Source: a bacterium
Lineage (GTDB): Bacteria; SZUA-182; DTGQ01
Reading direction: 5' to 3'
Assembly (NCBI GenBank): GCA_040752695.1
Contig: JBFMGO010000007.1
Span: 32,370 to 96,369, forward strand
DNA: 64,000 nt
Shown here: in pieces, positions 12,357 through 46,882 of the stretch
How positions within the stretch are numbered: the stretch's first letter is position 1
How the letters are laid out: each line of letters begins with the position of its first letter
The notes under the pieces: model-generated
Databases searched by the model: none
The model's input: the letters and a program-made list of their open reading frames with translations, nothing else
What the model was told of the DNA's origin: nothing
Translations under genes and position numbers: made by a program

Positions 12357-13397
12357 CTACGGCCTCCTCCAATCCAGGTAATAGACAGTCAGTTTGGGGC
12401 TGAGGGCAGGGTTAGTTGTATTGGCACTGCTGTGGAACCTGTATTCGTAGTTGCCGGACTGGGAAGATGCCTCCAGAATCAGGCCATAGTTCGAAGATGG
12501 ATATTTCATCCAGAAGCGGGTCAGGCCGGTGGCGTGCCAGGTTTGCCATCCCAGGTCTGTAAAGGTGCGGCTGTCTTCGGAACCGGCATTAAAATCACCG
12601 CCTGGCGCGGCCCAGGGGTGATAATTGTACCGGTTTCTCCATGTCGTTTCCAGATCTATCCATCGATTGGTGATCCTATGGAGGCGATAGCTGACTTGTG
12701 GCCAGTTTAAAGGGTCATCCGAAGGACCCTTAAACAGATAAAGAGAAAACCGGCTCGATACGATCGCGGCATCAGCAGGCAGCGGGTATTTCCCGAGATC
12801 GAAACGGACAAGGGTCCGATACAGTTTGTTCGTTTCGCTGTCCAGCATGAGTCTTTTCGGCTCGTTGTCCTCATACTTATCGTCCTCATGCTCGTCGGAG
12901 ATATAGGTATCCTCCCCTCTGAAAATGCCGCTGCTTTGCGGCTGAATCGTCAGCCAGAAAACGTTTCTTCCCGCGGATGATTTCGTTCCCTGAGCCACTG
13001 CCCGGCTATCGATAGAGACGCAGTGACGGGGGATATCCTCAGTGAAGGAAACCGTATAGGAGCCGTCACCCAATGAGAGATCAGTCATTTGAGCCCGCCA
13101 GTTCGGGTCCTGCGCCAATTGCCATAACCCGTGGGCAAGGCCGGCTTCGGCCAGATACAAAGCCTTTACTTTTTTTATCCGGTTAAAGGCCATCATGGTC
13201 TGAATACCCCTGGACTGGGCCAAAAAAAAACAGACCATTTCCAGGATGAATACGGTAACCAGGACCATAGCCAGGGCAAAACCGGACTGCTCGGTAAAAA
13301 CGAGCCTTTGAGAGAGAACCTTTTTCTCTTTCATCGATGTACTCTTTTTCTGAATGGGCTGCTTCCTCTTGTCCTCCCCTTGCCAGCGGCTATCCAA
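12357..13397 (-). CDS. PilX/GspK-like minor pilin with C-terminal DNRLRE-like domain
   Basis: GFALAMVLV (no Glu5), ALYLAEAGL; C-terminal EDTYIS...RTLVRFDL...PGGDF...NYGLIL...FHSS...PKLTVYY. Alternative start 13334. Confidence 0.75.
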   Translation of the reverse strand: MDSRWQGEDKRKQPIQKKSTSMKEKKVLSQRLVFTEQSGFALAMVLVTVFILEMVCFFLAQSRGIQTMMAFNRIKKVKALYLAEAGLAHGLWQLAQDPNWRAQMTDLSLGDGSYTVSFTEDIPRHCVSIDSRAVAQGTKSSAGRNVFWLTIQPQSSGIFRGEDTYISDEHEDDKYEDNEPKRLMLDSETNKLYRTLVRFDLGKYPLPADAAIVSSRFSLYLFKGPSDDPLNWPQVSYRLHRITNRWIDLETTWRNRYNYHPWAAPGGDFNAGSEDSRTFTDLGWQTWHATGLTRFWMKYPSSNYGLILEASSQSGNYEYRFHSSANTTNPALSPKLTVYYLDWRRP

Positions 13398-13403
13398 CGG
13401 ATT

Positions 13404-14252
13404 TTAATGGATGATGCCCTTTAAATAGACCTGGCTCTCGATGCGAACCTCCTCCCCATTGGAAGTAGTCACGCCCAGGGTCAAAGAGACGCCCGAAATA
13501 GTGCCTGACTCTATCCGGGTAACCTGAAAAATCGTCACCCCTTCAAGAAGAATTTCGGCCTGCCCGGTACAGTACCTTTCCATCAGGTTGCTATTAGGAT
13601 CAAGGTAATAAACCCAATATTCAACCGGATCTTCGTCTATCAGGCCATCCTCATCATCGTCACCGGTATTTCTCTCATCGATCTGTCCATTGCCGTTATC
13701 ATCCTTGCCGCTCACTCCCGAATACCCGTCATCGTTGATATCCCCGCCCGGATCCTCATCTCTGTAACCATCTCCATCATGATCCTGCCCATCCATAGGA
13801 TCCTCGTTCACCTGCCACCACCAAAAGAAACGAAAGCCATCCTCATCATCGTCACTGCTCGTGGTTTCGTCGATATCTCCGTCACCATCGTCATCGATGC
13901 CCGAAATACCCGGTGCGCCATCCCCGGTAACATCCGCCCCCGGATCTTCATCTATCAATCCATCTGCGTCGGTATCGACCATAGCCGAGAAAGCCAGTAC
14001 CTGCGAAGGATAGCCGGGACCTGAGCCTTTGAAAGGAAGCAGAAGCCGCATCGAGGGCCTGACCTTACTCAGGATATGATCCAGAGCCCAGCAGGCATTG
14101 TGCATAGCTTCACTTTGCTGCCTGCTGTAATTCCAGGACTCTACGGCGGTGACCAGAACCTGAGAGGTCACTCCGGCCAGAAGAGAGATAATACTCACGG
14201 CCACGAGTAATTCCAGCAAACTCAGCCCTGAATTTCCGATGTCCCTTAGCAT
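13404..14252 (-). CDS. Minor (pseudo)pilin, GspJ/PilW-like, with Asp/Gly-rich putative Ca-binding insertion
   Basis: Prepilin motif GLSLLELLVAV; multiple DxDGDGxIDED repeats. Confidence 0.8.
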   Translation of the reverse strand: MLRDIGNSGLSLLELLVAVSIISLLAGVTSQVLVTAVESWNYSRQQSEAMHNACWALDHILSKVRPSMRLLLPFKGSGPGYPSQVLAFSAMVDTDADGLIDEDPGADVTGDGAPGISGIDDDGDGDIDETTSSDDDEDGFRFFWWWQVNEDPMDGQDHDGDGYRDEDPGGDINDDGYSGVSGKDDNGNGQIDERNTGDDDEDGLIDEDPVEYWVYYLDPNSNLMERYCTGQAEILLEGVTIFQVTRIESGTISGVSLTLGVTTSNGEEVRIESQVYLKGIIH

Positions 14253-31291: not shown

Positions 31292-31445
31292 ATGAACCAG
31301 CATCCAAAAACCAACATTCATGAGCCGGCATCCAGAAACCAGCATCCAGAAACCATGAGCCGGGAACCATGAGCTAGCATCCAGCATCCATGATCCAGCA
31401 TCCAGCCAGCATCGAGAAACCATGAGCCAAAAACCAGGAACCATC
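31292..31445. repeat. Degenerate heptamer repeat tract
   Basis: CAGCATC/CAGAAAC/CATGAGC units repeated about 20 times between aroDE and aroA. Confidence 0.8.
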
Positions 31446-31447: not shown

Positions 31448-32755
31448 ATGAACCTGATAGCGCACAAGACAGCCCGTTTGGCCGGGGATATATCCATTCC
31501 CGGCTCGAAATCCCACACTATCCGGGGTGTGGTCATGGCCTCTTTAGCCAATGGCACATCGCGTCTGAAAAATCCGCTGGATTCGGCCGATACCCTGGCC
31601 GCCTTCAATGCAGCCCAAAGTTTCGGGGCCAGGATCGATACTTCCCATCCCGGAGAGTGGATCATCGAAGGATTCGGCAGCCATCCCCAAAAGCTTCCGG
31701 GGGGTCCGATCGACATGCTTAACAGCGGCACATCCACCAATCTGTTCGCCTCAGTAGCTGCATTGGGGGACTTCGAGATCATCATCGATGGGGACGCCTC
31801 CATTCGCCGGCGGCCGGTGCAGCCCCTTTTGGATGCCCTTTTGCAACTGGGAGCCGAGGCGCAATCGATCGGGAAAAACGGATGCCCCCCGCTTCGGATC
31901 AAAGGCCCTTTAAGAGGAGGCGAAGCCGAGGTTGACTGCCGCAGCTCACAGTACGTCTCAAGCCTTTTGATCACCTGCCCGCTCATCCACCCTGGCCAGA
32001 CCACAACAATCAGGGTTCGCAACGTGTGTGAGGTGCCCTACATCCAGATGACCCTCGACTGGCTGAAGTCCCTGGGCATTCAGGTGGAGCAAAAAGGGTA
32101 TGAGTGCTTTCGGATTCCGGGCGGGCAAAGCTACCAGCCCTTTGTCCGGGAAATTCCGGCTGACTGGTCATCGGCCACTTTCCCTTTATGTGCCGCTGCC
32201 ATGATTGAGGGCTCGGACTGCCTGATCAAGGGGCTCGATATCCAGGACTCCCAGGCTGACCGGCAGGTGCTGGAACATCTTCAGAAGATGGGAGCAGGAA
32301 TCGAGGTCACTGACCAGGGGATCAGGGTTTGCGGCCAGGGCCTGCACGGCACAGAGCTCGATCTGAACAATACCCCCGATGCCCTGCCAGCCATAGCCGC
32401 GACAGCCTGCATGGCCGAAGGGGTTACCGTTATCGGCAATGTGGCCCATGCCAGAATCAAGGAGACAGACCGCATCCAGGTTATGGCGCAAGAGCTTGGC
32501 CGGATGGGGGCAAAAATAAAGGAAACCCCCGACGGGCTGATTATCGAAAAGAGCAGCCTGCATGGTTCAACCGTGGAGGGGCACCACGATCATCGCGTGG
32601 TTATGGCTCTCTCCCTGGCCGCGATGGCGGCTTCGGGCCACACCTCGATTACGACCGCCGAGGCGGTGAACGTGACCTTTCCCACCTATGTCAGCCTCAT
32701 GCAGGGCCTTGGAGCCTGCCTGGAAATGACGGACGGGAAGCCCAGACCGGTATAG
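31448..32755 (+). CDS. aroA: 3-phosphoshikimate 1-carboxyvinyltransferase (EPSP synthase)
   Basis: PGSKSHT, NSGT, SSQYVS, DWSSA, RIKETDRI, DHRVVM. Confidence 0.97.
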   Translation: MNLIAHKTARLAGDISIPGSKSHTIRGVVMASLANGTSRLKNPLDSADTLAAFNAAQSFGARIDTSHPGEWIIEGFGSHPQKLPGGPIDMLNSGTSTNLFASVAALGDFEIIIDGDASIRRRPVQPLLDALLQLGAEAQSIGKNGCPPLRIKGPLRGGEAEVDCRSSQYVSSLLITCPLIHPGQTTTIRVRNVCEVPYIQMTLDWLKSLGIQVEQKGYECFRIPGGQSYQPFVREIPADWSSATFPLCAAAMIEGSDCLIKGLDIQDSQADRQVLEHLQKMGAGIEVTDQGIRVCGQGLHGTELDLNNTPDALPAIAATACMAEGVTVIGNVAHARIKETDRIQVMAQELGRMGAKIKETPDGLIIEKSSLHGSTVEGHHDHRVVMALSLAAMAASGHTSITTAEAVNVTFPTYVSLMQGLGACLEMTDGKPRPV

Positions 32756-35700
32756 CCATAAGCTCCTCAAGAACTGATAAAAACTGCGCCTTAATAACCC
32801 TTTCCCATGACATGGCTTTTGAAAGTGCTGCGCCTCTATCTATGAGAAGTCGGCGATCATTATCATTCTGAGGGAGTAACGAGTAAAGCTGTTCAGCAAG
32901 TTTTTCGCTGGTTTGCTCTTCATAGGTATCGATCTCATCACGAGTCGTAGTGGATACTACAGAAAATAGCCGGTCAGAAAAGATGTGATCTTTTTTGGTA
33001 ATATTCTCACGTGAAAGCTTTCCCTCTATCTTCTTACGCAATGGATCTAAAAAATCGGCTCTTAAAATATTTTTATCAAGTGCCAGGAGGGCTTTTTCTC
33101 TTTCTCTTGTGTTAAGCTTGTCAATCTCGGTTGCCCGCAGCCAATCGAGCATGCCCATGGATCCCGCAGATTTTGACAAAACGCAAATCGCTCCACAGCT
33201 TAACGGCTCCAGGGCAGACAGCCCAAATGACTCGTATGCACTGAGGCCGAGAGCGGCATCCGTTGCCCGATGCAGATCATCTCTTGTGAAGGATGGAGCC
33301 GGCAGATATTTACCTTCAACTTTCTCGGTTTGCTCAGGCCAGCGCGGAGCGTTCACGATCCGTACAAATACGCTGCCGTCAGCTTTGTCGAATTCGTATT
33401 TTTCAATATTATCCTTGATTTTGGAAATTATCGGATCATCACCACTCCATGATGTGACTATCAGCAACAAGGCTTGCTGCCTATTATCGGCTAAAATCTT
33501 CTGGAGCGATTTTAATAGTAATATGTCCCGGTGTATCGCCTTGCACATCATCGGTCGAGCAATGCGTGTTATCACGAAACACCGGTCGGGATCTGATGTA
33601 TTGATTTTTGGAAATCCCCATTTCTGAGCTGCATAAGTCAAGAGATTGGCACGGCAGCGCCTTTTCATTTCCACCGAGCAATTTATCTGCCTGTTCCCAT
33701 GGTAGAATACGGGGGTGTCTCCTTTCCTTCTGAAATTACCGTCAAGAAAAAGTAATTCATCAAAAACATAGTCGCTTACGGTCATAATTCGATCTAATTT
33801 CCATGCCTGTTGAATAAGACGCAAGTCCGAATGCATGGATATGTGCTGAAGTTGATTAAAATCGTGGATAGTTTTTCTTGGGGATTCCTCATCTTTTGAA
33901 AAGGATTCCGCACCCTTTAAAGGAATCGAAAATTCTATAAGATTGCGAACCTTGACATCTGACGATAATCCACCTCCCAATACGTATTCTTTCGCATCCG
34001 TAGTGAATGCAGCCCCTGATGCTGTTATTCCTTCGACTAAATTGCGTATCGTCTTTATTTCTCCGGCATAATACAGGGTGCGTAGCCGAAAAGGTTTGTA
34101 ATTTCCCAGTCTTCTCCCCTTCTTATTACTATCCGTATCACGCTTATAGCTGCCGGTTAGATTTCTCCTTCGATGCAAAAGAGCGGCGTATCCTGTAGGG
34201 AGCGAGAAGTAATCCTGAACGGTGATTACACAAACCTCTTTACTGCTCAGTAATGCCTGTACAGCTTCAACTGCCGGTTCAGCCAATAAAAGGCCGTAAA
34301 CATAGTCATTGTCGATGTGACGGTAGATGCCCTCGTTATTTTCGATAGCGGAAGTCCACCACTTGTTAAGAACAGCATTATTTACCAGGTTTACCCCAAG
34401 AGAATTGGATACGGCAGCCAGAATTTCAAATAAGGGGGGATATTGGCGAATATTTCCATAACTTAAGTCCAGATCCAATTCATGTTTCAGCCGGTCTAAA
34501 AATAATTTAAGTGATGGTGAATACACATTGCGAGGCGTTACGCATGCAGTGAGGTTAAAGAGCAGGCGCTCTAAAACGTGTCCATCGTATTCGGAAGACT
34601 TGCGGTCTCGCATATAAACGATCTCCACGCCGTGGCAGCGTTCTATCTGTCGGAACGTATCAGTTATGTAAGATGCCACAGTACTGTTAAGGGTACTGTT
34701 GGTTCGATACAGGATTTCCGCATCCAGTCTTTCCAGCACATCCTCGACAGTCTCGAAGGGATCATATTCCTTGGACGTTATAGGCGGGAACAGCGGGCCG
34801 ATAAGGAGTGTCCGCGTAACCGTGTCCCTGTATTTTTCATCGTCTACAAGATTAGATAACACCATCCCGACTCCACCCATCTGTCGCGATGCTTCCCAGG
34901 TAACCCAGGCAAGCGTTCTTTTTTTTCGGCTTTCGTTCGGTGAGGCAATCCAGATGCGCTCGGCTCTCCGGCCATTTCCCACTCTCATTGCGTGATGCTC
35001 AATCTTTTTTATGGTTGAAGTCCCCTCCATCTGAGACTTGTAACACGATAATCCATCTCTCTTTCTTTTCCAAAATCCCTCAAGGTCTACCAACAAAGGC
35101 TGCAAATGGTAGGAGGATAATCCCATTGAAGATTGCAGATGAGAGGACAGTCCCATCGCTAATTCCTCAATCTCCCCCTCGGATTTCTCCTCAGCATAGG
35201 GTAACTCTTCATAGTACAACAGTTGACCGGGATCTATTTCTGCCTCTTTTGCCGCCTTTATGGTCGCATAGAGGGCTATGAGATGATCAATATGCCCCGA
35301 TATTACTCCCAGGGGTACATAAATAGCTGCATTAATAGCTACATTTTTTGCCTCTCGCCGAAAAAAAACCGACAGCCTTTCCGCAACTGCATTGAGGAGA
35401 GTGAGCTCCTCTGCATCATTCACGCTGCGGCGATACTCCTCCCCTGCAATACTATAGCGAATGCTGGAATCATCGAAGTTGAGCCTTTCTAATCTGCAAC
35501 CTGTTTGTTTACAGAACAATTCTTCCTCTTCCGCCCGTATTGACGAGATTCCCTCTATACCATATTTTTGCCATTCAAAGTTAAAGGTGAATTTACTGCG
35601 CGAAAAAATCGTTATAATAGTTGCATCAGCCAGTTTTAAAGGAGGGGTTACAAGGCTTGAAAAACAGGAAAAAGCTATATCATCCGGATGCGGTGATATA

Positions 35701-35783
35701 AAATAGCGTTTTGGCAGTACGGACATAAGGTATTTATTCTCCCTTGAAAGTATAATTCTTATCCCAGATTTGGTTCTCCACAA
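32697..35783 (-). CDS. Fusion of PIG-L/LmbE-family deacetylase and GT-B (glycogen-synthase/GT3-like) glycosyltransferase
   Basis: SPHPDD, RAEEE, GHIDH and YYEELPY in the first ~280 aa; then VTWEASRQMGGVG and YESFGLSALEPLSCG. Likely start 35726; 3' end overlaps aroA. Confidence 0.78.
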   Translation of the reverse strand: MWRTKSGIRIILSRENKYLMSVLPKRYFISPHPDDIAFSCFSSLVTPPLKLADATIITIFSRSKFTFNFEWQKYGIEGISSIRAEEEELFCKQTGCRLERLNFDDSSIRYSIAGEEYRRSVNDAEELTLLNAVAERLSVFFRREAKNVAINAAIYVPLGVISGHIDHLIALYATIKAAKEAEIDPGQLLYYEELPYAEEKSEGEIEELAMGLSSHLQSSMGLSSYHLQPLLVDLEGFWKRKRDGLSCYKSQMEGTSTIKKIEHHAMRVGNGRRAERIWIASPNESRKKRTLAWVTWEASRQMGGVGMVLSNLVDDEKYRDTVTRTLLIGPLFPPITSKEYDPFETVEDVLERLDAEILYRTNSTLNSTVASYITDTFRQIERCHGVEIVYMRDRKSSEYDGHVLERLLFNLTACVTPRNVYSPSLKLFLDRLKHELDLDLSYGNIRQYPPLFEILAAVSNSLGVNLVNNAVLNKWWTSAIENNEGIYRHIDNDYVYGLLLAEPAVEAVQALLSSKEVCVITVQDYFSLPTGYAALLHRRRNLTGSYKRDTDSNKKGRRLGNYKPFRLRTLYYAGEIKTIRNLVEGITASGAAFTTDAKEYVLGGGLSSDVKVRNLIEFSIPLKGAESFSKDEESPRKTIHDFNQLQHISMHSDLRLIQQAWKLDRIMTVSDYVFDELLFLDGNFRRKGDTPVFYHGNRQINCSVEMKRRCRANLLTYAAQKWGFPKINTSDPDRCFVITRIARPMMCKAIHRDILLLKSLQKILADNRQQALLLIVTSWSGDDPIISKIKDNIEKYEFDKADGSVFVRIVNAPRWPEQTEKVEGKYLPAPSFTRDDLHRATDAALGLSAYESFGLSALEPLSCGAICVLSKSAGSMGMLDWLRATEIDKLNTREREKALLALDKNILRADFLDPLRKKIEGKLSRENITKKDHIFSDRLFSVVSTTTRDEIDTYEEQTSEKLAEQLYSLLPQNDNDRRLLIDRGAALSKAMSWERVIKAQFLSVLEELMAIPVWASRPSFPGRLQGPA

Positions 35784-35890
35784 AAGTCCATTTTCCCCTG
35801 CACTTGCCGATCAGCCATTAATTTTATATTACAGTCTGTTATGGCTATTTTGCTGATTGAAATACAAATATGTACGAATACGATGGAACT

Positions 35891-38644
35891 TCAGGCATCC
35901 ATACCGTTTTTACGATCCACACCTCCGACCCAGTCGTCTAATTCCGACAGCCGGTTTTTCATATTCAGCTCTTCCAGGACCATTTGAGCAGCCTGCTTAT
36001 AATGCTGACTATCTTCATCCTCGCCCTTTCCCGCTTTAAGACGGGCTAAAAGTAAATTGGCCTCCGCCAGGGTAACGGTATTTCTTTGCTGGTATAATTC
36101 CAAAACCTTCAAGGCGCGGCTCTGCGCCTTATCCATATCTCCCAATTGATATTCTGCTATGGCCAGGTCCAGGGCATAGCGATGGACTGCCCATTCATCC
36201 CCTTGTTTTTGAGCCTCATCCATAGCCATTTGCAGCCATTTTTCCACTTTCCCGAGATCACCTTTCAACTGATAGAGTAATCCCTTTGAGCGGAAAATCT
36301 TCTGTTTCATCCAGGATATATCGGTATTTTGGGTAGTTGAGATAAATTCGTTCAATAGCTTTTCCGCTTTCTCTACCTCGCGTCCCCGTATGGCATACTC
36401 TATTCCATTGGCCAATATTTCAGCGAGTAAATGTGGAGAATGAGCATTGCGGGCAATATCCACCGCATCCTGGAATATCCCATTCGCCTCGGGTTTATTC
36501 CCGGCTCTGAAATGGAGCCACGAAATTTTGTTCAGTAATCCTGCCTCCATAAATCTGTATTCTTTCTCTCTCGCAAGATCAACGACTTGCTGGCAATAAT
36601 CTATCGCTTTTTTCCATTCGCCTTTCTTCTCAGAGAAATACGCCAGATCTTCAAGGCAGGTAGTTTTTTTAAGCCACTGAGGATTTTTACCTTGCTCTAT
36701 CAGGTTCAGGGTCTGCTCGTAATAATGGATGGACGTTTCCTCTTTTCCTATTATTTTATAAGCCTGGGCAAGGTTAAAATAAGCTAATACCTGCCCTTCG
36801 GAGTCTGCCTGATCTTCCGCCGCTTTTAAGGCTTCCGATATGTTTTTGATTACCGAACGCGAATCCTGCTCTACCCGGAGTTTTAGAAATATCCCGGCAC
36901 ATCTGGCCATATGCAGTGCCAGGCCCGTCTTTTTTGCCATTTCCCATGCCTGATTATATTCGTCCAGCACATCGGGAGGTGCATTTTGTCCATTGCATTG
37001 ATATACTGCCTCCAATGTCAGGAGCATGTGAAGCAATTCATGCAGGTTGTTTGACTCGCTTGCTAATCTTATTGCCTTTTCCATCTGTGATTTGGCAAGT
37101 TCCAAATTTTCCATGGTATGGATACGAATGTTGGAATCGAGATCCAGGAGGGAAATCTCGACGGTAATATCCTTTTCCCTTTCCGGTATTTTCCCGAAAT
37201 TACTTAATCCGCAGTTTGTATGATAAGCCGCTTCGTTCAGGGCACATATACGCCATGCCTTCTGCCCCGCTCTTAATCTGAATTTCGCTGCTTTATGATA
37301 GGTATGCGCTGATTCATAGTGAACAGCTATCTCACCAAAAGGAATGTCGATCTGATCGATAAATGAATGCTCGTAAATTTCGGCAATCTTTTTGTGGAGT
37401 TCGCCTTTTTCAGCTTCACCTAAACTATCGTATATTACCTGATGATATACGGTATGCGAGAATTTAAAATTTTTATCAAAATTATTCGGCTCATAAGTTA
37501 CGGATTCCTCTATTAACCTGCACTTTTGTCGGATTTTGGTTAAATGTTTAAGTACCTCCAGGTGATCTACGCCGAGGAGTTTTGCCAGAACTGTCGAGTG
37601 AAATTCCTCCCCCTCGACACTTGCATAATTTATTACCGTCACTAAATTATTATCGAGGAGTCCCAATCTTTCAAGGATGATGTCTTGAACCTCAAGGGGA
37701 ACTTTTTTCGGATTAAACGCTGAACTCACCTGCCAGCGGCCTTGATCCAGTTGAATATGGCTTTTCTCTTCTAAGAATTGAAATATGAGAGACATGAACA
37801 AAGGCCATCCCTCGGTATGCTTGCAAAGCCAATCAGTGAATGACTTATTGTCTTCCAATCCGGGATATTCTCTCTTTATATATTCACTAATCTCCTGCTT
37901 ATAAAGATTTTTCAGGGTAATAAATTTGGCTGAATTGTGACGGCGCAGTTCAGAAATCACTTTTTTCAAAGGTTTTAACGGATTAGACGGGGATTCTATT
38001 TCAACGGGGCGATATGTTCCGATCATCAGGATGGGAAGAGATTCCAGATAATGCGACAGGGTAAATAATAGATTAATCGAAGGCCCATCAGCCCAATGTA
38101 AGTCATCTATAAAGATTATTAATGGGGTCTTGCCAGCTATGGAACTGAAGAACTCGATATATCTCGAATTAACTCTATTGATAATATCTACGGCATTTTC
38201 TCCCGTTAATTTACCTTTTTTCCATTCATGAATCAGGTCTACAAAATCATAGAAGAATCCAAACCTGGGCGATATCTTGCTCATGCTGCGTCCTAACTGG
38301 TTCAGTGCTTCTTTGTAGAAATTCGGATTTCGATGAACAAGTTCGGTAATAATTTTATCGAAAGGAACAAATGGTTCTCCCACTGAGGCCAAATCGGTAC
38401 ACTTGGCCTCAATGAACTTAATTGTTAGGTTCTTTTCTCTTTTTGCCTTTCGGCATAATGGTCCGATCAAAAGGTTGTATGAATGATTTATTAAAGCGGT
38501 TTTCCCGATACCGGCCTCTCCCTCGATAAGAATGAGTGAGCCCTTGCCATTCAGGAATTTTTCGGCGGCCTCTTGTAATTGCCTCAGTGCATCTTCACGT
38601 CCAACGAATCTCCCCTGATCAGGGATAGATAAAGCCTTCGACAT
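35891..38644 (-). CDS. STAND-class (AAA_16-type) ATPase with C-terminal TPR repeats, no effector domain
   Basis: FVGRE, GEAGIGKT, IFIDDLHWAD, GTYRP, TEGWPLF, FKFSH; helical TPR-like C-terminal half. Confidence 0.87.
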   Translation of the reverse strand: MSKALSIPDQGRFVGREDALRQLQEAAEKFLNGKGSLILIEGEAGIGKTALINHSYNLLIGPLCRKAKREKNLTIKFIEAKCTDLASVGEPFVPFDKIITELVHRNPNFYKEALNQLGRSMSKISPRFGFFYDFVDLIHEWKKGKLTGENAVDIINRVNSRYIEFFSSIAGKTPLIIFIDDLHWADGPSINLLFTLSHYLESLPILMIGTYRPVEIESPSNPLKPLKKVISELRRHNSAKFITLKNLYKQEISEYIKREYPGLEDNKSFTDWLCKHTEGWPLFMSLIFQFLEEKSHIQLDQGRWQVSSAFNPKKVPLEVQDIILERLGLLDNNLVTVINYASVEGEEFHSTVLAKLLGVDHLEVLKHLTKIRQKCRLIEESVTYEPNNFDKNFKFSHTVYHQVIYDSLGEAEKGELHKKIAEIYEHSFIDQIDIPFGEIAVHYESAHTYHKAAKFRLRAGQKAWRICALNEAAYHTNCGLSNFGKIPEREKDITVEISLLDLDSNIRIHTMENLELAKSQMEKAIRLASESNNLHELLHMLLTLEAVYQCNGQNAPPDVLDEYNQAWEMAKKTGLALHMARCAGIFLKLRVEQDSRSVIKNISEALKAAEDQADSEGQVLAYFNLAQAYKIIGKEETSIHYYEQTLNLIEQGKNPQWLKKTTCLEDLAYFSEKKGEWKKAIDYCQQVVDLAREKEYRFMEAGLLNKISWLHFRAGNKPEANGIFQDAVDIARNAHSPHLLAEILANGIEYAIRGREVEKAEKLLNEFISTTQNTDISWMKQKIFRSKGLLYQLKGDLGKVEKWLQMAMDEAQKQGDEWAVHRYALDLAIAEYQLGDMDKAQSRALKVLELYQQRNTVTLAEANLLLARLKAGKGEDEDSQHYKQAAQMVLEELNMKNRLSELDDWVGGVDRKNGMDA

Positions 38645-39023
38645 GAATATCCCCCCTTAGACTTACGGTTAGTCTCTTTCGGCTATTATGTATTAATAAC
38701 ATAACGAACATTTACATTATTATTTATAATAGATACAAAGAGTTATGGCTATATCTGTTCAATGCGGGCTTAGGATAGAATTGATATTGATGATAGTATT
38801 GATGGTGATGGATGGTGATAAGATGAAAGGGACGTACTAGATTTATCATTCTATACCTTAGGCCGGTATATGTCGGTAATAGTAGTTTTCCGTCCTGGGG
38901 CAGAGCAACATTACACGAGGGGGCGAAAGGAGTACCCCCTTGTCAGGTGGTGGTTGGAAGCCTCCATTGCGGAGTCGATCGGGCACCCCTCACAAGTGAA
39001 ACGTAATCTGCAACATTAACTTT

Positions 39024-39052
39024 AATATACTATAATTTGACCTGATGGGCAA
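39024..39052 (-). promoter_or_regulatory. Candidate sigma70 promoter for the STAND island
   Basis: Minus strand TTGCCC-17 nt-TATATT, about 380 nt upstream of the STAND ATG. Confidence 0.45.
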
Positions 39053-39152
39053 CAAATAAAATTTTCGGGCTGGCTCCAGCTCTTTCATGGCACGCCATGA
39101 AAAGACAGGATAAACCGGCCGCGTAATTCCCGCGACCTGAAGTATTTAGTGC

Positions 39153-39212
39153 CTATCCCAAAACCTCCGGCAACAGGTGTAATCATTCATCTAAAATGGG
39201 GTTTGGGGATAG
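39153..39212. repeat. Inverted-repeat element after the ExeA fusion gene (REP-like or terminator)
   Basis: CTATCCCAAAACC ... GGTTTGGGGATAG. Confidence 0.55.
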
Positions 39213-39223
39213 CCTCTTAGTCT

Positions 39224-41317
39224 CTACAGTCTGCGGTAGATAGCATCCGGTATGTAGTAGTTTCTCCGGTTCAGCACTACGCCCAGGATGGGCACTGCGC
39301 CATTGAGGGCGTTCTTTGTCTTGCGGACGATTTCCATCCGGGTTTTACCTGCCTGAACGACCAGGACGAGGCCGTCCATTTGTGATCCCAGAAGGAGTGC
39401 ATCGGAATTGGCGCTGACAGCACTGGTATCGAATAAAATATGATCGAAGTGCTCCTGAAACTCTTGAACCGTCCTTTCCAGAACTGCGCATTTGAGCAAG
39501 TGCGCGGGGTTTCCCACAATCTCCCCGGCGGTTATGATGGAAAGGTTGGGGACTTTGCAGGATCGCAGGCAATCCTTCCAGCCAATTTTCCCCAGGATTA
39601 TCTCGCTCATCCCTTCGGCTTTCGACAGGCCGAAAAACCGGTGCAGTTTCGGGGACCGGAAATTGGTATCCACCAGAAGAACCTTGACCTCTTCTGTCAG
39701 GGCAAAAGTAATGGCGAAATTAATGGCTACCGTGGAAGTGCCCTCTCCCGGTTTCGAACTGGCGAACACGAGGGTCTGAATCTTGTTCGATGGATTGGCC
39801 AGGAAGAGATTGTTCTTGATCTTCTGGTATTCCTCAAGCACTTTGGACGGTAAGGAGAGTGGTTTTTTCCCTATCAGGCGGCGGGCGCTTCGTATGATGA
39901 GATTGGGGAAAAAGCTCAGGCACCCTCTCAGCAGGCCCCCTTCTCTTGCACCCGAAGAGAAGATATTTAAGGACTCGATCTGCCTGATGTACTCCGGTGA
40001 GAGGGATTTTCGGTTGATGAGCCCATTTGCATTGCGGTTTTTTACTGTTGGCGCTGCTCCTTTTGAGACTTTCGGGGTATCCTCAGAGAGCGACCTTGGC
40101 GTCTCCTCTTTTCTGCCCGGGATTCCGCCGGCCTGGGCATCGCCCTTGAAGGAAATCTGCGGCTGCTCCTCGCTGTCGGGAAGATTGCGGGGCAATCTTC
40201 CCCTGGTGCTGAATGGTTCTTCCTGCACGTTAGCGCCGGGTTCCCATTTACGTCGTGGATGCCCCTGGACTTGATTCCGCCCCAGGACCGTGCGCAGCCC
40301 TTCGTGCAGGAATCTAAAGACTTCGTCCCCTAAAGGCGGCAGAGGGTGGATTCTTGTGCCGGTATTTATTATCTGGTATTCCCTGCCCGTTATCTTAAGC
40401 TGATCCTCTTTTTCATCCCCATACGTGCCGGAGGTATCGGGCATTTCGTGCAACCTGGCAGTGGGGGGGCGGTTCCAATCGTTTTGAACAATGGCTTTTT
40501 GTGCGGGGTTCCCTTGCGGGTTTTCGAAGAGCAGGGAAAGTTCCCGGATGATATCGTAATCGATAAAGTGTTGTTGGCGGGTAAATCCCAACAGTAAGGC
40601 CTTATCGCAAAGATTGTTGATAAGTCGGGGGATTCCCTGCGCCCTGCGATGGACTTCCTGCACCGCTTCATAGGAGAAGATGTCCTGCTGATCCCGGCCC
40701 GCTCTTCTCAACCGATATTCAACATATTGGAAACTTTCCAATTCATTTAAAGGATCGATCCGGCAGCTCAAATCTATCCGCTGCTTGAGCTGCTGGACTG
40801 TGGGCTGATTCAGTTTGCTCTGTAGTTCCGGCTGCCCGACCAGAACGATCTGCAGAAGCTTCTGGTCTGAAGTCTCCAGGTTTAACAGAAGCCTGATCTG
40901 CTCCAATTGCTGCCAATCGAGGCTCTGGGCCTCATCGACCACCAGGACTACGGAGATTCCCTGCTGAACCTGGTACAACAGACCCTCCCGCAGCAGCTCG
41001 AAATTATCTTTGGACGAATCCGAACCGCATACGCCGATCTTTTGCAGGAGATGACCGAGAAGTATATTGAACTCCGCGCCGGTATTGAGAAAAAAGATCA
41101 TCTTGACCATCTGGCCGATTTCTCTCTGGATAACGTGCAGAAGTGCCGTCTTGCCGGTACCCGGTTTACCTGCAACTGTGATAAGCCCCTTTTTTTCCCG
41201 GATGGCATACAACAGAAAAAGGAGTGCACGCTGATGCCCGGTACTCATAAAGAAGAAATCAGGATCGGGTGTATTGTTAAAGGGTAAATTAGTAAACCCG
41301 TAAAAATCGGTGTACAT
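39224..41317 (-). CDS. ExeA/GspA-type AAA ATPase fused to a CpsD/CapB-type tyrosine kinase domain
   Basis: YGFTNLPFNNTPDP, GKPGTGKT, VVDEAQ, LVGQPEL, GIPRLIN; C-terminal SSKPGEGTST, VLLVDTNFRSP, GVVLNRRNYYIP. Confidence 0.85.
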   Translation of the reverse strand: MYTDFYGFTNLPFNNTPDPDFFFMSTGHQRALLFLLYAIREKKGLITVAGKPGTGKTALLHVIQREIGQMVKMIFFLNTGAEFNILLGHLLQKIGVCGSDSSKDNFELLREGLLYQVQQGISVVLVVDEAQSLDWQQLEQIRLLLNLETSDQKLLQIVLVGQPELQSKLNQPTVQQLKQRIDLSCRIDPLNELESFQYVEYRLRRAGRDQQDIFSYEAVQEVHRRAQGIPRLINNLCDKALLLGFTRQQHFIDYDIIRELSLLFENPQGNPAQKAIVQNDWNRPPTARLHEMPDTSGTYGDEKEDQLKITGREYQIINTGTRIHPLPPLGDEVFRFLHEGLRTVLGRNQVQGHPRRKWEPGANVQEEPFSTRGRLPRNLPDSEEQPQISFKGDAQAGGIPGRKEETPRSLSEDTPKVSKGAAPTVKNRNANGLINRKSLSPEYIRQIESLNIFSSGAREGGLLRGCLSFFPNLIIRSARRLIGKKPLSLPSKVLEEYQKIKNNLFLANPSNKIQTLVFASSKPGEGTSTVAINFAITFALTEEVKVLLVDTNFRSPKLHRFFGLSKAEGMSEIILGKIGWKDCLRSCKVPNLSIITAGEIVGNPAHLLKCAVLERTVQEFQEHFDHILFDTSAVSANSDALLLGSQMDGLVLVVQAGKTRMEIVRKTKNALNGAVPILGVVLNRRNYYIPDAIYRRL

Positions 41318-41335: not shown

Positions 41336-42898
41336 TTACTCTTTGACCTCCGGGATTGAGCCCAAAACCGGTAAATCCAATGATGCCTCCAGCTCTTCTG
41401 CGGTTCCGATGGAGTGGTCCATCAACTCGAAGAGCAGGGCTGTTCCCAGACCTGCCGCGAGCCCTAATACGACGGCTACAAAAACCTTAACCATCTTCAT
41501 GGATGGTTTTGGCAAAAGGGGAGTCAAGGCAGGCTCAATAACACTGATATTGGCAAAGCGGGCTGTATCCATGGCATCGGAAATCCGGTTTTCTTCAACC
41601 TTTTTCCTGTAGAGCCGGAAATTTTCTTCCTCGATTTTAATCTGGCGCTGCAATTGATTGAGCTCCACTTCGGTTTCATTAAGATCGTTCAGCTTTTGTT
41701 CGCAGATGAGCAGGTTTTTTTCGAGATTGTCTCTCTTGGCCATAAAGGATCTCAGGTCAGCCTGATTTTTCAGGATCGATTCGGTCAGTCTGAGATAAAG
41801 GTCATTGAGTCCTACCCGCACTTCGAATTGCTCAGGACCGGGCAATTTTTTCAATTGTGATTCAACATCGCCGATCTCTTTGCGGATATCGAGGATTCTG
41901 CGCTGATTGGCGTCGGCAAACATGTTCATCAATCTTTGTTCCTGAAGTTTGAGTTGGGAGAGCTGCGAGTCAAGTTGCTCTTTCAGGGGATTTACTCTTG
42001 AAATCTCGTATTGCCAGATTATGTGCTCCTGATCCGCAAGCTGATCTTCCTGCTGCTGCAACTGCTCCTTAGTCCCGTCAATGCTGCTTTCCACCTGCTC
42101 CAGGCCGCTCTCATACTCTCCCTTTTGCCTGAGGAGGATCTCTCTTTGTAAATCTAATTCAGCCAGGGAAGACCGCTTTTTGAATTCTTCCAGCCTTTTT
42201 TCCGAGTCCTCCAGCTTTTGCTGAAATTCGATAGCCTGATCGGAGAAAAACTGGTAGGCTCCGGGCGTTTTGTGCACCAAAAGGTGATGATCGAGGTAGA
42301 AATCCAAAAGGGTGTTAATCACATCAACGGTCACCCTGGGATCAGGGGAGGAAAAACTGACCTGGATTACATTGGAATTCTCGACCAGTTGAACAGCAAG
42401 ATGCCTTTGTATGGTAAGCACCGCGGATTCAAATGGTGATAAAGGCGAAGAGGTCAGAAGGGGAGAGGGAAACAGGTGGCTGAGCAGGTTTTTGAGCGCC
42501 TGAATGCTGTTGGACAGAATCTGGCTTATGGCCGAACGAGCGGGAGCCTGACCAGTGTCGGCTGAAGAGGAGGTTAAATCGTATCCCAGTTTCTCTACCA
42601 CTTTCTCGGCCAGCAGTCTGCTGCGAAGGATTTCGATCTCCGAATTGATATCTTCCAGGCGGGTGGTGTCCATAATCCGCTCAGGCACGTCCATTACGGC
42701 CGTGGTAGGAGTAGAGTTTTCTCTGCCTTCCTTGACCAGGATCTTGGCCGTACTCACATAGACTGGCTTCTGCATGCTGATTACAAGAACCGCCAGAGCG
42801 AACACTGTCAGGAAAACCAGCACGATTTTGCCCTTATGTTTGAAAATAACATAGAGCAGATCCCGCAAGGACTTGTTTGTGACCCTGTATTCGTCCAC
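41336..42898 (-). CDS. wzc: Polysaccharide co-polymerase (Wzc/GumC N-terminal type)
   Basis: Two TM flanking a long coiled coil; PVYVSTAKILV, SEIEILRS, NISVIEPA, LPVLGSIP. Confidence 0.88.
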   Translation of the reverse strand: MDEYRVTNKSLRDLLYVIFKHKGKIVLVFLTVFALAVLVISMQKPVYVSTAKILVKEGRENSTPTTAVMDVPERIMDTTRLEDINSEIEILRSRLLAEKVVEKLGYDLTSSSADTGQAPARSAISQILSNSIQALKNLLSHLFPSPLLTSSPLSPFESAVLTIQRHLAVQLVENSNVIQVSFSSPDPRVTVDVINTLLDFYLDHHLLVHKTPGAYQFFSDQAIEFQQKLEDSEKRLEEFKKRSSLAELDLQREILLRQKGEYESGLEQVESSIDGTKEQLQQQEDQLADQEHIIWQYEISRVNPLKEQLDSQLSQLKLQEQRLMNMFADANQRRILDIRKEIGDVESQLKKLPGPEQFEVRVGLNDLYLRLTESILKNQADLRSFMAKRDNLEKNLLICEQKLNDLNETEVELNQLQRQIKIEEENFRLYRKKVEENRISDAMDTARFANISVIEPALTPLLPKPSMKMVKVFVAVVLGLAAGLGTALLFELMDHSIGTAEELEASLDLPVLGSIPEVKE

Positions 42899-42934: not shown

Positions 42935-43687
42935 TTACTTTCCTCGAATCAGGTCAGTGAAAACCTGGCTCGGAACGATCTTGTTCATATATTGATCAAC
43001 AAATTGATCCACTTTACTGATCAAAGTCTTCGGTACAAAAACTACATCACTTGGCTGCAACTGGAGGTCATTTTTTACCAGCTTCTTGCTCAGGAACAAT
43101 TTCATAAGGTCAACTTTGATTACCCGAAAGTCCGGTTGTCCGATCTTTCTCAGGATAAGAACACTGCGCATTTCTGCCGATTCCTTGAACCCACCGGCTG
43201 CAAAGATGGCCTGGAGTGCTGTTTTGCCGCTCTCGAAGTTGACCATCTGTGGATTGGCCACTTCCCCGCCGACGTAAACCTTCTGAGAAAAATTGGTTAC
43301 GATTACCGTAACCGCGGGCTCACGAACGACTTTTGCGTATTCATCCCGAATGATCTGTTGAACCTTGGAAGGGGTCATTCCCCCTGCCTTGACATCTCCG
43401 ATGAGCTGAAGCGAGATAATCCCGTCAGGCCGGATAACGGTTTTAGTATTGAACTCCGGCGTATAATAAAATTTGATCTCCAGTTCGTCTCCGCTTTGCA
43501 GGATATATTCAGTTCCCGGTTGTTCCCCCTGGTAATTCGATCGCATGACTTGCATGTTATCGACATCGTCATACACATAAGACGGTCCGCATCCCCAAAT
43601 ATTGCACATGAAAAGGATGACACCAAGAATAAGAGCCCAAATACTGAACGGATGGGAAGAGGGCATCCGCCTCCTTTTTTCTTTCAT
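42935..43687 (-). CDS. wza: Polysaccharide export outer-membrane lipoprotein (Wza/OPX)
   Basis: Lipobox IWGC, YILQSGD, IRPDGIISL, VYVGGEVANP, LQPSDVVFVP. Confidence 0.9.
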   Translation of the reverse strand: MKEKRRRMPSSHPFSIWALILGVILFMCNIWGCGPSYVYDDVDNMQVMRSNYQGEQPGTEYILQSGDELEIKFYYTPEFNTKTVIRPDGIISLQLIGDVKAGGMTPSKVQQIIRDEYAKVVREPAVTVIVTNFSQKVYVGGEVANPQMVNFESGKTALQAIFAAGGFKESAEMRSVLILRKIGQPDFRVIKVDLMKLFLSKKLVKNDLQLQPSDVVFVPKTLISKVDQFVDQYMNKIVPSQVFTDLIRGK

Positions 43688-44386: not shown

Positions 44387-46882
44387 ATGATCAAGAAGAA
44401 TTACTATGAAGTCCTGGAAGTTGCTCAAGACGCCAGTGCGGAAGAGATAAAAAAAGCATATCGGAAAAAGGCCTTGCAATACCATCCGGACCGCAATCCG
44501 GGGAACCCGGAAGCGGAGGAAAAATTTAAGGAGGCCTCCGAGGCGTATGAGGTCCTGAGCGACTCGCAAAAAAGAAGCCTCTATGACCAGTATGGGCCGG
44601 AAGGGCTTCGAAGTTCAGGCTTTAGCGGCTTCAATTTCGACGACATATTCGGCAACGATGTGTTCAGCAGTTTTACTGACATTTTTGGAGATCTTTTCGG
44701 GTTAAGAGGGGGCAGGACCGGTGGCCGGCCTCGTCCAATCAGAGGAGCGGACCTGCGGCATGATGTAACGATTGCCTTCCGTGAGGCGGCTTTCGGAGTG
44801 GAAACCGATATCGAAGCGGAACGGTACGAAACCTGTCCCGTCTGTAAGGGCAGCAGAGCCAAGCCAGGCACATCACCAACGGTATGCCGCACATGCGGGG
44901 GAAAGGGGCAGGTCCGGCTCACGCAGGGCTTTTTAAGCATCACCACCACCTGTCCGCAGTGCAGAGGTGTCGGTCAGATCATCGAGGCTCCCTGTCCGGA
45001 GTGCCGGGGACAGGGTAAGGTAGTGAAGAAAAGAACCCTGCACATCAAGATTCCTGCGGGTGTTGATAACGGTTCCCAGCTTCGGCTCATGGGAGAGGGA
45101 GCTCACGGCGAACAGGGAGGCCTGCCGGGTGACCTCTATATCTTCATCCAGGTCAAGGAGGATGAGTTTTTCTCCCGGCAGGATGACGATATCCTGTGCA
45201 CCGTGCCCATATCCTTTCCCCAGGCAGCCCTGGGAGCGGAAATCGAGGTTCCCACTCTTTCCGGGCCCCACAAGATGGATATCCCCAAAGGGACTCAGAG
45301 CGGCACGGTAATGCGCATCAAAAAGGCAGGTTTTCCCAACGTCTATGGCAAGGGCAAGGGGGACCAACTGGTGAAAGTCATCGTGGAGGTACCCACGAAA
45401 CTGAGCCGGAAGCAGGAAGAGTTATTGCGCGAATATGCCAAAGAAAGCGGCGAAGAAGATCAGCATGAGAAGCATCATAAGAAAGGCTTTTTTCACTTTC
45501 TGGGAGCGATCCTGGTCTTTCTTTTCCTGCTCCTTATGACGGCCCCTTCGGTCGTCAGAGCGGGCGAAGCAGCGGATGATTCCCCTCCTGCCAGCGATTC
45601 GCGCAAGACGCCGGTGGTAAAGGTTGTCGAAAAAGTAAGTCCTGCTGTCGTTAACATCAGCACCGAAAGGATCGTGCAGGAGAGGGTGAACCCTTTTGGC
45701 AATCCTTTTTTCGATAATTTTTTCGATAATTTTTTCGATACCTTTCCTCAGAAAAGCTATAAGCAGCAAAGTCTGGGATCAGGTGTCATCATTGATCCCA
45801 AAGGACATGTCCTGACCAATGAGCATGTCATTTTAAAGGCATCGAAGATCAAAATCACCCTGTCCGATAACCGTGAGTTCGAGGGCAAACTGGTTGGCTC
45901 CGATCCCAAATCGGATCTGGCCATAATAAAAATAGACTCCGCTGGGAATCTTCCCCACATTACCGTAGGGAACTCCGACGACCTGATGGTGGGCGAAACC
46001 GTAGTGGCCATCGGTAATCCTTTCGGCCTGTCTCATACCGTGACCAGCGGGGTAGTCAGCGCCATCAACCGCACGGTAAAGGTTAACAACGAGCTGGCTT
46101 ACCACGGCTTCATCCAGACAGATGCCTCCATCAATCCCGGAAACAGCGGGGGGCCGCTGCTGAATATCAGGGGAGAATTGATCGGCATTAACACCGCCAT
46201 TTACCAGAAAGCCGAGGGGATAGGTTTTGCTATTCCCATCGACCGGGCCAAAAGGATCGTCGCAGATTTGATTACCTACGGAAAGGTACGAAAAGCTTGG
46301 CTCGGTCTCCGTGTTCAGGATCTTAACAGGGATCTGGCCAGTTACTTTAATCTCGGCCACCCCTCAGGGGTTATCATCACCCGTGTCATTGCCGGCAGTC
46401 CGGCAGAAAAGGCCGGCCTGCAAAGAGGCGATGTCATTCAGAAAATCAACAAGGAAAAGATCGATTCCCAGGATATCTACCGCTCGGTTGTGGCTGGATT
46501 TACCGCAGACAGTACCATGGATATTTCGGTACTGCGGGAAGGAAAGCCCCGTACGTTCAGCTTCAAACTTGCCCGGATGACTCAAGATGACGGCGAAAAG
46601 ATCGCCAGGGATTTATTTGGAGTAACGGTTCAGGATTTTAAGGCCTTATCAAGGAGCAGAGGTCAGAGGAATTTTGGCGTGATTGTGACCGCCGTCAGGG
46701 CCAAAAGCCCTGTCAGCAAGACAGGTATCCGAAAGGGTGATATTATCCATCAGGTCAATGACAAGGAAATAAGAGACCTGAAAGATTTCCATGAGGCCGT
46801 TATTTCGAATGCCGACCAGGACAGCCTGCTCCTTTTAGTCCAGCGAGGCCCTTACATGTATCCGGTCACGATCAGTTTTTGA
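44387..46882 (+). CDS. dnaJ: Class A DnaJ fused via a TM helix to a DegP/Do-family serine protease (trypsin domain + 2 PDZ)
   Basis: HPD J-domain, G/F region, four CxxCxGxG, C-terminal domain; [12 protein letters not shown]; then TNEHV, SDLAII, GNSGGPL and two PDZ domains; single uninterrupted frame. Confidence 0.88.

Follow-up and report, generated by a model that had tools for sequence, protein, structure and literature searches.

Can a STAND nucleoside triphosphatase (NTPase) that carries no output domain of its own act through the enzyme encoded beside it? The question is raised by a two-gene island in the genome of an uncultured bacterium (GTDB lineage Bacteria; SZUA-182; DTGQ01). The window we analysed is a stretch of 64,000 nucleotides (contig JBFMGO010000007.1 of assembly GCA_040752695.1, forward-strand positions 32,370 to 96,369), part of a 96-kb contig in a 6.05-Mb genome of 239 contigs with an estimated completeness of 96.6%. 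Within it, minus-strand positions 32697-38644 are filled by two co-oriented open reading frames (ORFs), 35891-38644 (917 amino acids) and 32697-35783, exactly where an earlier reading of the bare letters, hereafter the original prediction, had placed two large genes. That prediction took the first for a STAND ATPase ending in TPRs and the second for a fusion of a PIG-L deacetylase with a GT-B glycosyltransferase (GT), and proposed that the enzyme serves the ATPase as an effector in trans. We find the best explanation overall to be a horizontally acquired unit in which the STAND protein gates the deacetylase-glycosyltransferase, an explanation that we hold tentatively and place somewhat short of even. 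The unit comprises the following genes and domains.

35891 to 38644, minus strand: STAND NTPase gene (P0002, 917 amino acids), an ORF encoding an AAA_16 NTPase, a helical/winged-helix region and C-terminal TPRs
32697 to 35726, minus strand: gene for the fusion of a PIG-L/LmbE deacetylase with a large GT-B glycosyltransferase (P0003, 1009 amino acids), known as an ORF, a recorded protein and an AlphaFold2 model
34926 to 35717, minus strand: PIG-L/LmbE deacetylase domain of the fusion, residues ~4-267, from Pfam PF02585 and a VIA fold match
32736 to 34934, minus strand: large GT-B domain of the fusion, residues ~265-997, from Foldseek and VIA matches and invariant columns

The ATG at 35726 is a more likely start for the fusion gene than the long-ORF start at 35783, because the resulting 1009-residue form is on record and a GGGAG ribosome-binding site lies ~12 nt upstream. 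Pfam recognises the PIG-L domain (PF02585) at residues 28-177 of the long ORF, with 36.5 bits against a cut-off of 28.2 and 39.2 bits in a genome-wide search. An AlphaFold2 model of the fusion, built on a 60-row alignment, has a mean predicted local distance difference test score (pLDDT) of 90.3 and a predicted template modelling score (pTM) of 0.81, and both halves of the proposed fusion are recovered in it. Residues 4-267 match the LmbE fold, with the teicoplanin and A40926 pseudoaglycone deacetylases as best hits (VIA Z 24.4-23.5, root-mean-square deviation (rmsd) 2.6; for the teicoplanin enzyme 2x9l, Z 24.4 with 232 residues aligned), followed by diacetylchitobiose deacetylase (Z 20.8) and BshB (6ull, Z 20.2). 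The passage of PMC4101496 that defines the LmbE metal-binding and general-base motif, HXD1D2 plus H, gives a spacer of 97-148 residues. The fusion carries this motif as H13-P14-D15-D16 within SPHPDD (11-16) together with H145/H148 within GHIDH, at a spacing of 129-132 residues, and H13, D15, D16, D147 and H148 are invariant among 11 family members.

The remainder of the protein is modelled as a two-lobed GT-B enzyme. Foldseek matched residues 265-997 to the glycogen synthases 4qlb, 8cvz and 4kqm (E ~1e-17, probability 1.0), and VIA placed human GYS1 first (8cvz, Z 22.8, rmsd 3.7, 505 residues aligned), with yeast Gsy2p, BshA (6d9t, Z 20.6, 370 aligned) and MshA (3c4q, Z 19.9) also in the range 22.8-19.9. 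The Z values of the GT3 and GT4 matches lie within ~3 of each other; the domain appears to be built like a glycogen synthase because the aligned stretch is much longer (505 versus 370 residues). Judged by profile searches, it is a member of no curated sequence family. Glycos_transf_1 (PF00534) covers only residues 816-856 of the 1009 and scores 21.9 bits, below its cut-off of 26.4. The GT3 glycogen synthase family PF05693 gives no match at E ≤1, and distant relatives of P0003 match it only faintly. GT4-conflict (PF20706) reaches 12.5 bits (E 0.14), under its 26-bit cut-off. This last profile exceeds its own cut-off in 13 other genes of the host genome and in 14 of 14 control genomes, and because it fires in all the controls we discounted as unspecific a lead from the Atlas, a Myxococcota cluster with GT4-conflict in 47% of its members.

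Catalytic residues are preserved in this domain as well. Invariant among the 11 members are G284-G285, R724, K729 and E840, and position 832 is E or D. The motif E832-x7-E840 within YESFGLSALE (831-840) and the basic pair R724...K729 are what we take to be the nucleotide-sugar-site motifs of retaining GT-B enzymes. The HPDD and YESFG motifs that had been picked out by eye are both in place, and because the catalytic motifs of both domains are intact and conserved, both predicted active sites look competent. On the strength of the model, we count the fold of the fusion and its intact catalytic motifs as established. The highest 19-residue Kyte-Doolittle average is 1.42, which we read as the absence of a membrane segment. 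The C-terminal ~15 residues extend past the end of most homologues, and the model has pLDDT <50 there.

How widespread is such an enzyme? A search of 5.8 billion clusters returned 8 matches, and a profile search of 1.84 billion representatives found about a dozen full-length fused proteins, together with GT-only (~600 amino acids) and PIG-L-only (~240 amino acids) relatives. Only one full-length relative has a name, a protein of the lichen-forming ascomycete Puttea exsequens; the P0009 cluster includes short members that are annotated to uncultured Bacteroides. No further relatives were found in viral contigs or plasmids, or in the species genomes searched with P0009. Metagenome contigs from JGI yielded 18 loci and 0 fused members, with one locus (L197) matching residues 9-912 in broken pieces. 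The fusion enzyme is real, rare and structurally well defined. Its GT-only relatives of ~595 amino acids in Planctomycetota and others (L109-L188) occupy a conserved housekeeping neighbourhood. Across 79 GT-only loci, the neighbours include queF at position -2 (18 loci), queC at -3 (10), a small protein of no assigned function at -1 (19), coaE at +1 (16) and rho at +2 (14). At no locus is PIG-L a neighbour.

We then turn to the presumed sensor. Pfam agrees with the original prediction that the STAND protein starts directly at its NTPase and ends in TPRs. AAA_16 (PF13191) spans residues 12-208 with 72.7 bits against a cut-off of 32.6, which places P0002 among STAND NTPases of the AAA_16 type, and C-terminal repeats run to about residue 895 (TPR_12, 66.4 bits; TPR_MalT, 56.7 bits). 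The expected nucleotide-binding motifs are present: Walker A GEAGIGKT at 42-49, which contains the GIGKT noted earlier, Walker B IIFIDDLHWAD at 176-186 and GTYRP at 209-213. The Pfam scan found no kinase, cyclase, HTH, nuclease or other output domain at either end. A top 19-residue Kyte-Doolittle average of 1.35 was again read as the lack of a membrane segment. P0002 also matches TIGR03903 across the NTPase and helical region (E 8.8e-34), and its Atlas fold model matches AAA_16-TPR clusters with template modelling (TM) scores of 0.67-0.77.

Sorting the 119 best homologues of P0002 by output architecture in a hand count showed what such proteins usually carry. Fusions to a Ser/Thr kinase account for 89 of the 119; three have Trans_reg_C and three TIR, while HTH, cyclase, PF03704 (presumably BTAD) and PF19960 occur in one each. 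The remaining 20 have no recognised output domain, and output-less AAA_16-TPR clusters in the Atlas have 56 to 366 members. By these sequence comparisons the output-less STAND-TPR architecture is common and no oddity. Fold neighbours of P0002 that do carry outputs are transcription regulators (Trans_reg_C, GerE, HTH_3) or GGDEF proteins, and the two clearest paralogues in the host genome are kinase fusions of ~2000 amino acids. The three TIR-bearing homologues indicate that the P0002-type STAND family is also used in conflict-type architectures. Close STAND relatives in species genomes amount to 5 distant paralogues, all from one Anaerolineales metagenome-assembled genome (MAG). That MAG holds at least 5 P0002-type STAND paralogues on separate short contigs (L207-L211), which looks like a lineage-specific expansion.

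Is the pair native to this genome? The island has a GC content of 0.438 compared with 0.4815 for the genome, at the 5.6th percentile among 4851 segments of equal size. GC content at third codon positions (GC3) is 0.443 and 0.445 in the STAND and fusion genes versus 0.53-0.70 in seven flanking genes (wza, wzz, the wzc-like gene, aroA, aroDE, a radical-SAM gene and a dnaJ-protease gene). Tetranucleotide distance is ordinary, with 19% of 891 segments at least as distant. The AT-richness remarked on in the original prediction is therefore real but moderate; it stands for GC and GC3 and does not extend to tetranucleotide usage. The fusion is present in 0 of 60 related genomes, save one weak partial match in a distant genome. 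Among 20 relatives there is no STAND orthologue, just ~26%-identical paralogues within much larger proteins. Two congeners (G001, G002) keep the dnaJ-protease, wza, wzz and wzc-like block at 55-78% identity and lack the pair. Downstream of the block, one congener has a HepT/MNT toxin-antitoxin pair and selB, and the other has HhH-GPD and a sulfatase-TPR gene; in both, the radical-SAM/aroDE/aroA block lies on other contigs. The toxin-antitoxin pair, a HepT-like RNase and an MNT nucleotidyltransferase, sits directly downstream of the wzc-like gene (locus L025, G002:C2, 12600-13416), which suggests that this site collects mobile cargo. The STAND and fusion genes are accessory and lie at a synteny break and variable site. 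Taken together, the synteny break, the absence from relatives and the composition argue that the two genes were probably acquired together.

Whether they are also expressed together depends on the sequence around and between them, which contains the following features.

35727 to 35890, minus strand: spacer between the STAND gene and the fusion gene, 164 nt, AT-rich (GC 0.35), from sequence, scan and RNA fold
38645 to 39223, minus strand: intergenic region upstream of the STAND gene, 579 nt, from consensus scan and sequence
38742 to 38752, minus strand: the 11-mer ATAGCCATAAC in its first exact copy, which ends 97 nt ahead of the STAND start codon
35838 to 35848, minus strand: the 11-mer ATAGCCATAAC in its second exact copy, which ends 111 nt ahead of the fusion start codon
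32752 to 32762, plus strand: inverted copy of the 11-mer with one mismatch, just past the fusion stop; with 38742-38752 it brackets the island (inverted repeat I7)

A consensus scan of the spacer found neither a terminator-like hairpin nor a minus-strand promoter-like site, so co-transcription of the STAND and fusion genes is likely. The spacer RNA does not fold with unusual stability (z +1.14; 174 of 200 shuffles fold at least as well). In the 579-nt region, a terminator-like hairpin (39137-39117) follows the wzc-like gene, and promoter-like sites lie at 39052-39024 and 38876-38848, which suggests that the pair is transcribed apart from wza-wzz-wzc; these sites are consensus matches, with counts no higher than in shuffled sequence. 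We also considered whether the STAND gene had lost an upstream kinase domain and ruled this out, as no kinase-domain remnant was detected in the region upstream of it, where Rfam gave no match either. The 11-mer ATAGCCATAAC has 2 exact copies in the 64-kb window, and 7 matches at ≤1 mismatch versus 0.59 expected. It is possibly a shared regulatory site. Having been spotted post hoc it is given little weight, and a short repeat in two copies could arise by chance. The two upstream regions show no likeness besides this 11-mer. In or near the island we found no tRNA, no Rfam match, no convincing small ORFs and no integrase. The only repeat on its flanks is an imperfect inverted pair of 16 nt, and convincing terminal repeats are lacking.

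The neighbours of the pair are those originally named, aroA and wzc. On the downstream side, aroA (31448-32755, plus strand) is convergent with the fusion gene, and the 3' ends of the two overlap by 59 nt (32697-32755). On the other side, the gene at 39224-41317 (minus strand) encodes an XrtA/PEP-CTERM-associated ATPase (TIGR03015, residues 1-260) fused to a polysaccharide tyrosine autokinase (TIGR01007, residues 495-686), a fusion that the congeners keep at 55-62% identity. Further upstream on the same strand are the chain-length determinant wzz (41336-42898) and the Wza-like exporter wza (42935-43687).

This position invites another account, in which the pair belongs to the adjoining XrtA/PEP-CTERM-type exopolysaccharide export locus, the fusion making or de-N-acetylating a polysaccharide precursor and the TPR protein acting as an assembly or regulatory factor. 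The pair does lie directly downstream of, and co-oriented with, wza, wzz and the pepcterm_ATPase/tyrosine-kinase fusion. The three-gene wza-wzz-wzc export block lacks a nearby glycosyltransferase of its own, and other exopolysaccharide systems, loosely compared, have deacetylase, GT4 and TPR components. We nevertheless judge this account very improbable. The two congeners retain the block with other genes downstream of it, so that block and pair do not co-occur there, and the 579-nt gap with its hairpin and promoter-like sites separates the two. Moreover, the GC3 of the pair is below that of the block, both proteins look soluble and cytoplasmic, and among the loci viewed no exopolysaccharide locus contained a relative of the fusion.

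If the STAND protein gates the enzyme, the two might be expected to keep company elsewhere. The conserved neighbourhood that the original prediction proposed to look for did not materialise: no orthologous co-occurrence of the two genes was found. Among the loci viewed, PIG-L and GT enzymes are paired at six, from three lineages; the closest relatives are too rare for a statistical test. In the window, the AAA_16-TPR STAND gene stands directly upstream of the fused PIG-L/GT gene. The second lineage is a Competibacteraceae MAG (L029), which carries on one strand genes for SIR2-EAD8, nSTAND1-WD40, PIG-L, GT and EAD8-TIR (EAD, effector-associated domain). These genes form a low-GC island (2441-13728 of that locus, GC 0.35-0.51) in a genome of GC 0.64, flanked by two TgpA-like transglutaminase genes of GC 0.64. 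The nSTAND1-WD40 gene is interrupted by an insertion sequence (IS) fragment of GC 0.59, and the STAND protein itself showed no detectable EAD8. P0003 branches early within the fused clade of a GT tree (SH-aLRT 100). Given where P0003 and the Competibacteraceae GT fall, the STAND association appears twice on the tree, in branches distant from each other and with STAND clades that are unrelated. A jackhmmer search of 190 loci for either STAND type returned this locus and the five Anaerolineales loci that the STAND query had itself fetched. Set beside predicted STAND-GT conflict systems, the two genes of the window are adjacent, co-oriented, alike in composition and unfused, and the adjacency recurs once more only, at L029 with its other STAND clade.

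The third lineage counts towards an account of the pair as chance neighbours. Four myxobacterial loci in Archangium and Pyxidicoccus genomes share a cassette of a conserved protein of no assigned function (~330-365 amino acids), PIG-L, a large GT and a NodS-like S-adenosylmethionine (SAM) methyltransferase (L212, 7275-12045; L213, ~8240-12926; L214, ~8164-13013; L030, 921-3540), and the flanks are unrelated between genomes. The conserved protein (P0294) has no Pfam match and no sequence match in the PDB; searching that genome with PF03171 lent no support to a motif-based guess that it is a 2-oxoglutarate-Fe(II) (2OG-Fe(II)) oxygenase. By this account the two genes of the window are chance neighbours in a variable spot, the fusion an ordinary biosynthetic enzyme for a glucosamine-containing small molecule or glycoconjugate, a role that its myxobacterial relatives seem to fill alongside a methyltransferase, and the STAND-TPR protein an unlinked orphan signalling or scaffold protein. 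That the cassette recurs without a STAND gene fits such an account, as do the antibiotic-tailoring deacetylases that are the nearest solved relatives of the PIG-L domain, the commonness of output-less AAA_16-TPR proteins, the lack of a detectable partner for the 51%-identical STAND homologue P0011, and the unrelated cargo at the same site in congeners, which points to a general insertion spot. Other evidence speaks for the pair. GC3 is equal in both genes, their order is operon-like with no terminator-like site between them, and both have the 11-mer upstream. An independent lineage holds a PIG-L+GT pair inside a STAND island, and the window offers no further biosynthetic genes of the myxobacterial kind, such as the methyltransferase. 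We regard chance neighbourhood as possible, if rather doubtful.

Several observations nonetheless weigh against a functional link between the STAND protein and the enzyme. In the Competibacteraceae island, the GT is distant, clustering with P0148 in a position that lies outside the fused clade and further out than the myxobacterial one, and the STAND protein comes from a different clade, has WD40 repeats and is split by the IS fragment; the use of another STAND clade argues against a conserved direct STAND-enzyme interface. At the myxobacterial loci no STAND gene lies within ~10 kb where the contig allows. The only close homologue of the STAND protein (P0011, 51% identity, on a 7.6-kb contig) has no detectable close fusion homologue among full-length proteins and fragments, a negative limited by the word index and the short contig. 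The two proteins of the window share no adaptor domain, and no likely contact region could be identified. As far as sequence comparison can tell, the STAND family is mainly one of signalling proteins, given its 89 kinase fusions among 119 homologues and its kinase-fused paralogues in the same genome, and the wider GT family includes a gene in a housekeeping context in Planctomycetota. Judged by its family, an output-less protein such as P0002 leans towards signalling rather than defence. Finally, PADLOC recognised no known defence system in the pair or in 41 other ORFs of the window. It found no model for the fusion, and its matches to the STAND protein are faint, one to a generic TPR model (E 4.6e-6) and one to PDC-S27 (E 4.2e-4), with no Avs model at E ≤0.01.

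What would a gated enzyme of this kind be for? The window offers little to suggest conflict: no conflict or defence gene was found among 41 of its ORFs. TIR, SIR2 and EAD8 genes are present at the Competibacteraceae relative. We consider anti-phage or anti-invader defence an unlikely purpose of the pair. A different purpose would be ordinary physiology with no conflict role, the STAND protein sensing a cellular metabolite and controlling an enzyme that makes a stress-induced glucosaminyl storage polymer or a thiol-like low-molecular-weight compound. MalT, which senses maltotriose, is the model for such a circuit. In sequence and fold, the STAND protein is related to regulators linked to kinases, cyclases and HTH domains. 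The solved structures most like the enzyme (BshA/BshB, MshA, glycogen synthase) are all of metabolic enzymes, and no defence signal was found in the window. A core physiological circuit would be unusual in a pair of foreign composition that none of the searched relatives has, and the one relative found next to a STAND gene has TIR and SIR2 effector genes around it. To us this makes metabolite sensing improbable.

Returning to the gated unit, we can outline how it might work. The locus would be a horizontally acquired two-gene unit, probably read as a single transcript. The STAND protein would be an ATP-binding switch without an output of its own, its TPR array likely the ligand sensor, and the fusion a soluble, cytoplasmic, bifunctional enzyme. 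MshA/MshB, BshA/BshB, PIG-A/PIG-L and the paromamine step of aminoglycoside pathways all proceed in two steps, transfer and then deacetylation. By this precedent the likeliest chemistry is N-acetylglucosamine (GlcNAc) transfer followed by de-N-acetylation. The retaining GT-B domain would take a hexosamine-type sugar from its UDP-sugar donor (most likely UDP-GlcNAc) and pass it to an acceptor, and the Zn-dependent LmbE domain would then strip the N-acetyl group to leave a glucosaminyl product, possibly a conjugate or a short alpha-linked chain. Donor, acceptor and the order of the steps are our best guesses. On ligand binding the STAND protein might change state or oligomerise and so gate the neighbouring enzyme, whose action, the tagging of a target or the draining of the UDP-sugar pool, would be the output. 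Kaur et al. 2021 predicted conflict modules that join a STAND protein to a glycosyltransferase, and the pair would then be a version of these acting in trans.

The sensor-effector reading draws on the operon-like arrangement, the shared composition, one independent relative (L029) and analogy. The original proposal is supported in part: the accessory nature of the pair, its shared GC3, the spacer free of terminator-like sites and the STAND/TIR/SIR2 island in a second lineage speak for it, and the STAND-free myxobacterial loci and the partnerless P0011 speak against it. By analogy with published systems it is plausible, a variant of a class already predicted in print. Functional coupling of the STAND protein and the fusion enzyme we accept provisionally, as a possibility that falls a little below an even one. 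A bolder version would be an NLR-like immune module with a sugar-chemistry output. The TPRs would sense an invader protein, and the STAND protein would turn on the GlcNAc-transferase/deacetylase, which would place a glucosamine tag on an invader or host macromolecule, or drain UDP-GlcNAc by rapid polymerisation and stop cell-wall synthesis and growth. The enzyme module would have been exchanged between bacteria and lichen-forming fungi and be pluggable into unrelated STAND clades (AAA_16-TPR, nSTAND1-WD40). We think this quite unlikely.

If the coupling is true, STAND/NLR-type switches gain a new output, glycosyl transfer followed by de-N-acetylation, and the prediction that glycosyltransferases act as immune effectors gains an experimental handle. 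If it is false, what remains is a rare accessory enzyme beside a common orphan signalling ATPase. The fusion is of interest alone: it joins an LmbE deacetylase to a GT-B domain the size of a glycogen synthase, is confidently folded and has about a dozen full-length cluster representatives. The fused family is spread over the uncultured bacterium of the window, probable Bacteroides relatives and a lichen fungus.

Two further features of the window lie outside the island. Between aroDE and aroA, at 31295-31437, is a degenerate tandem array with a period of 14 nt and ~10 copies (consensus AACCAGCATCCAGA, 68% matches). At 44387-46882 on the plus strand, a single ORF of 831 amino acids encodes a complete DnaJ (J domain, zinc finger and C-terminal domain) with a trypsin-like protease and two PDZ domains, a chaperone/HtrA-type fusion with ~72% identity in two congeners.

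Has such an arrangement been described? The main text of Kaur, Iyer, Burroughs and Aravind 2021 (eLife e70394, PMC8195603) predicts GT4 domains as effectors in bacterial conflict systems, often fused to AP-ATPase, NACHT or SWACOS STAND modules and also in a two-gene nSTAND2 operon. The main text of Kaur et al. 2020 (PMC7159879) presents EADs, including EAD8, as adaptors that recruit effectors, with three glycosyltransferase families among the latter. In neither main text do the words PIG-L, LmbE or deacetylase occur, and a survey of 589 STAND clades from 2026 (10.64898/2026.01.04.697583) uses neither glycosyltransferase nor deacetylase in its main text. Full-text searches of the literature gave no description of a STAND protein beside a PIG-L/LmbE-glycosyltransferase, although supplementary tables might list one. 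The claim that the arrangement is undescribed must accordingly be narrowed, as a STAND protein with a glycosyltransferase effector is an already predicted class; the PIG-L partner and the in-trans layout are what we did not find in the texts searched.

Comparison with characterised enzymes helps to place the fusion. Bacillithiol and mycothiol synthesis begin with two enzymes that act in sequence, BshA/BshB and MshA/MshB respectively. These pairs, PIG-A/PIG-L and the paromamine step resemble the fusion in pairing a retaining GT-B enzyme with an LmbE-type Zn deacetylase, and BshA, MshA and BshB are all among the top structural matches to its two domains. Unlike these pairs, the fusion holds both activities in one polypeptide, deacetylase first, and no later pathway genes lie in the window. 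Its GT domain, at ~730 amino acids, is about twice the size of BshA, and it scores 17 bits on the NCBIfam BshA model against a cut-off of 274, which shows that it is not a BshA orthologue. The GT3 glycogen synthases (human GYS1, yeast Gsy2p) are alike in overall size, have corresponding insertions and give the best fold match for residues 265-997; with 12-16% identity, the likeness is one of fold only. Unlike GT3 glycogen synthases, the GT domain is fused to a deacetylase, which suggests an N-acetylated sugar rather than glucose. The teicoplanin and A40926 deacetylases Orf2* and Dbv21, of the LmbE family, are the best sequence and fold match of the N-domain (profile search E 1.2e-9). Their identity to it is 18-24%, and they stand alone in glycopeptide antibiotic clusters, whereas the window has no such cluster.

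The STAND protein, for its part, has its closest sequence relatives among AAA_16-TPR signalling STANDs of the MalT/PknK/AfsR type, from which it differs in having no kinase, cyclase or DNA-binding domain. It resembles Avs/AVAST proteins in its STAND NTPase followed by a C-terminal TPR sensor; unlike them, it begins its NTPase at residue 12 with no fused effector domain, and no PADLOC Avs model matches it. The pair as a whole is most readily compared with the STAND-GT4 conflict systems predicted by Kaur et al. 2021, which likewise combine a STAND NTPase with a presumed GT-B effector or modifier and are mobile and patchy. In the main text of that study the GT4 domains are fused to AP-ATPase, NACHT, SWACOS or nSTAND2 modules, whereas here the two proteins are encoded by separate genes and the STAND module is of the AAA_16/MalT type.

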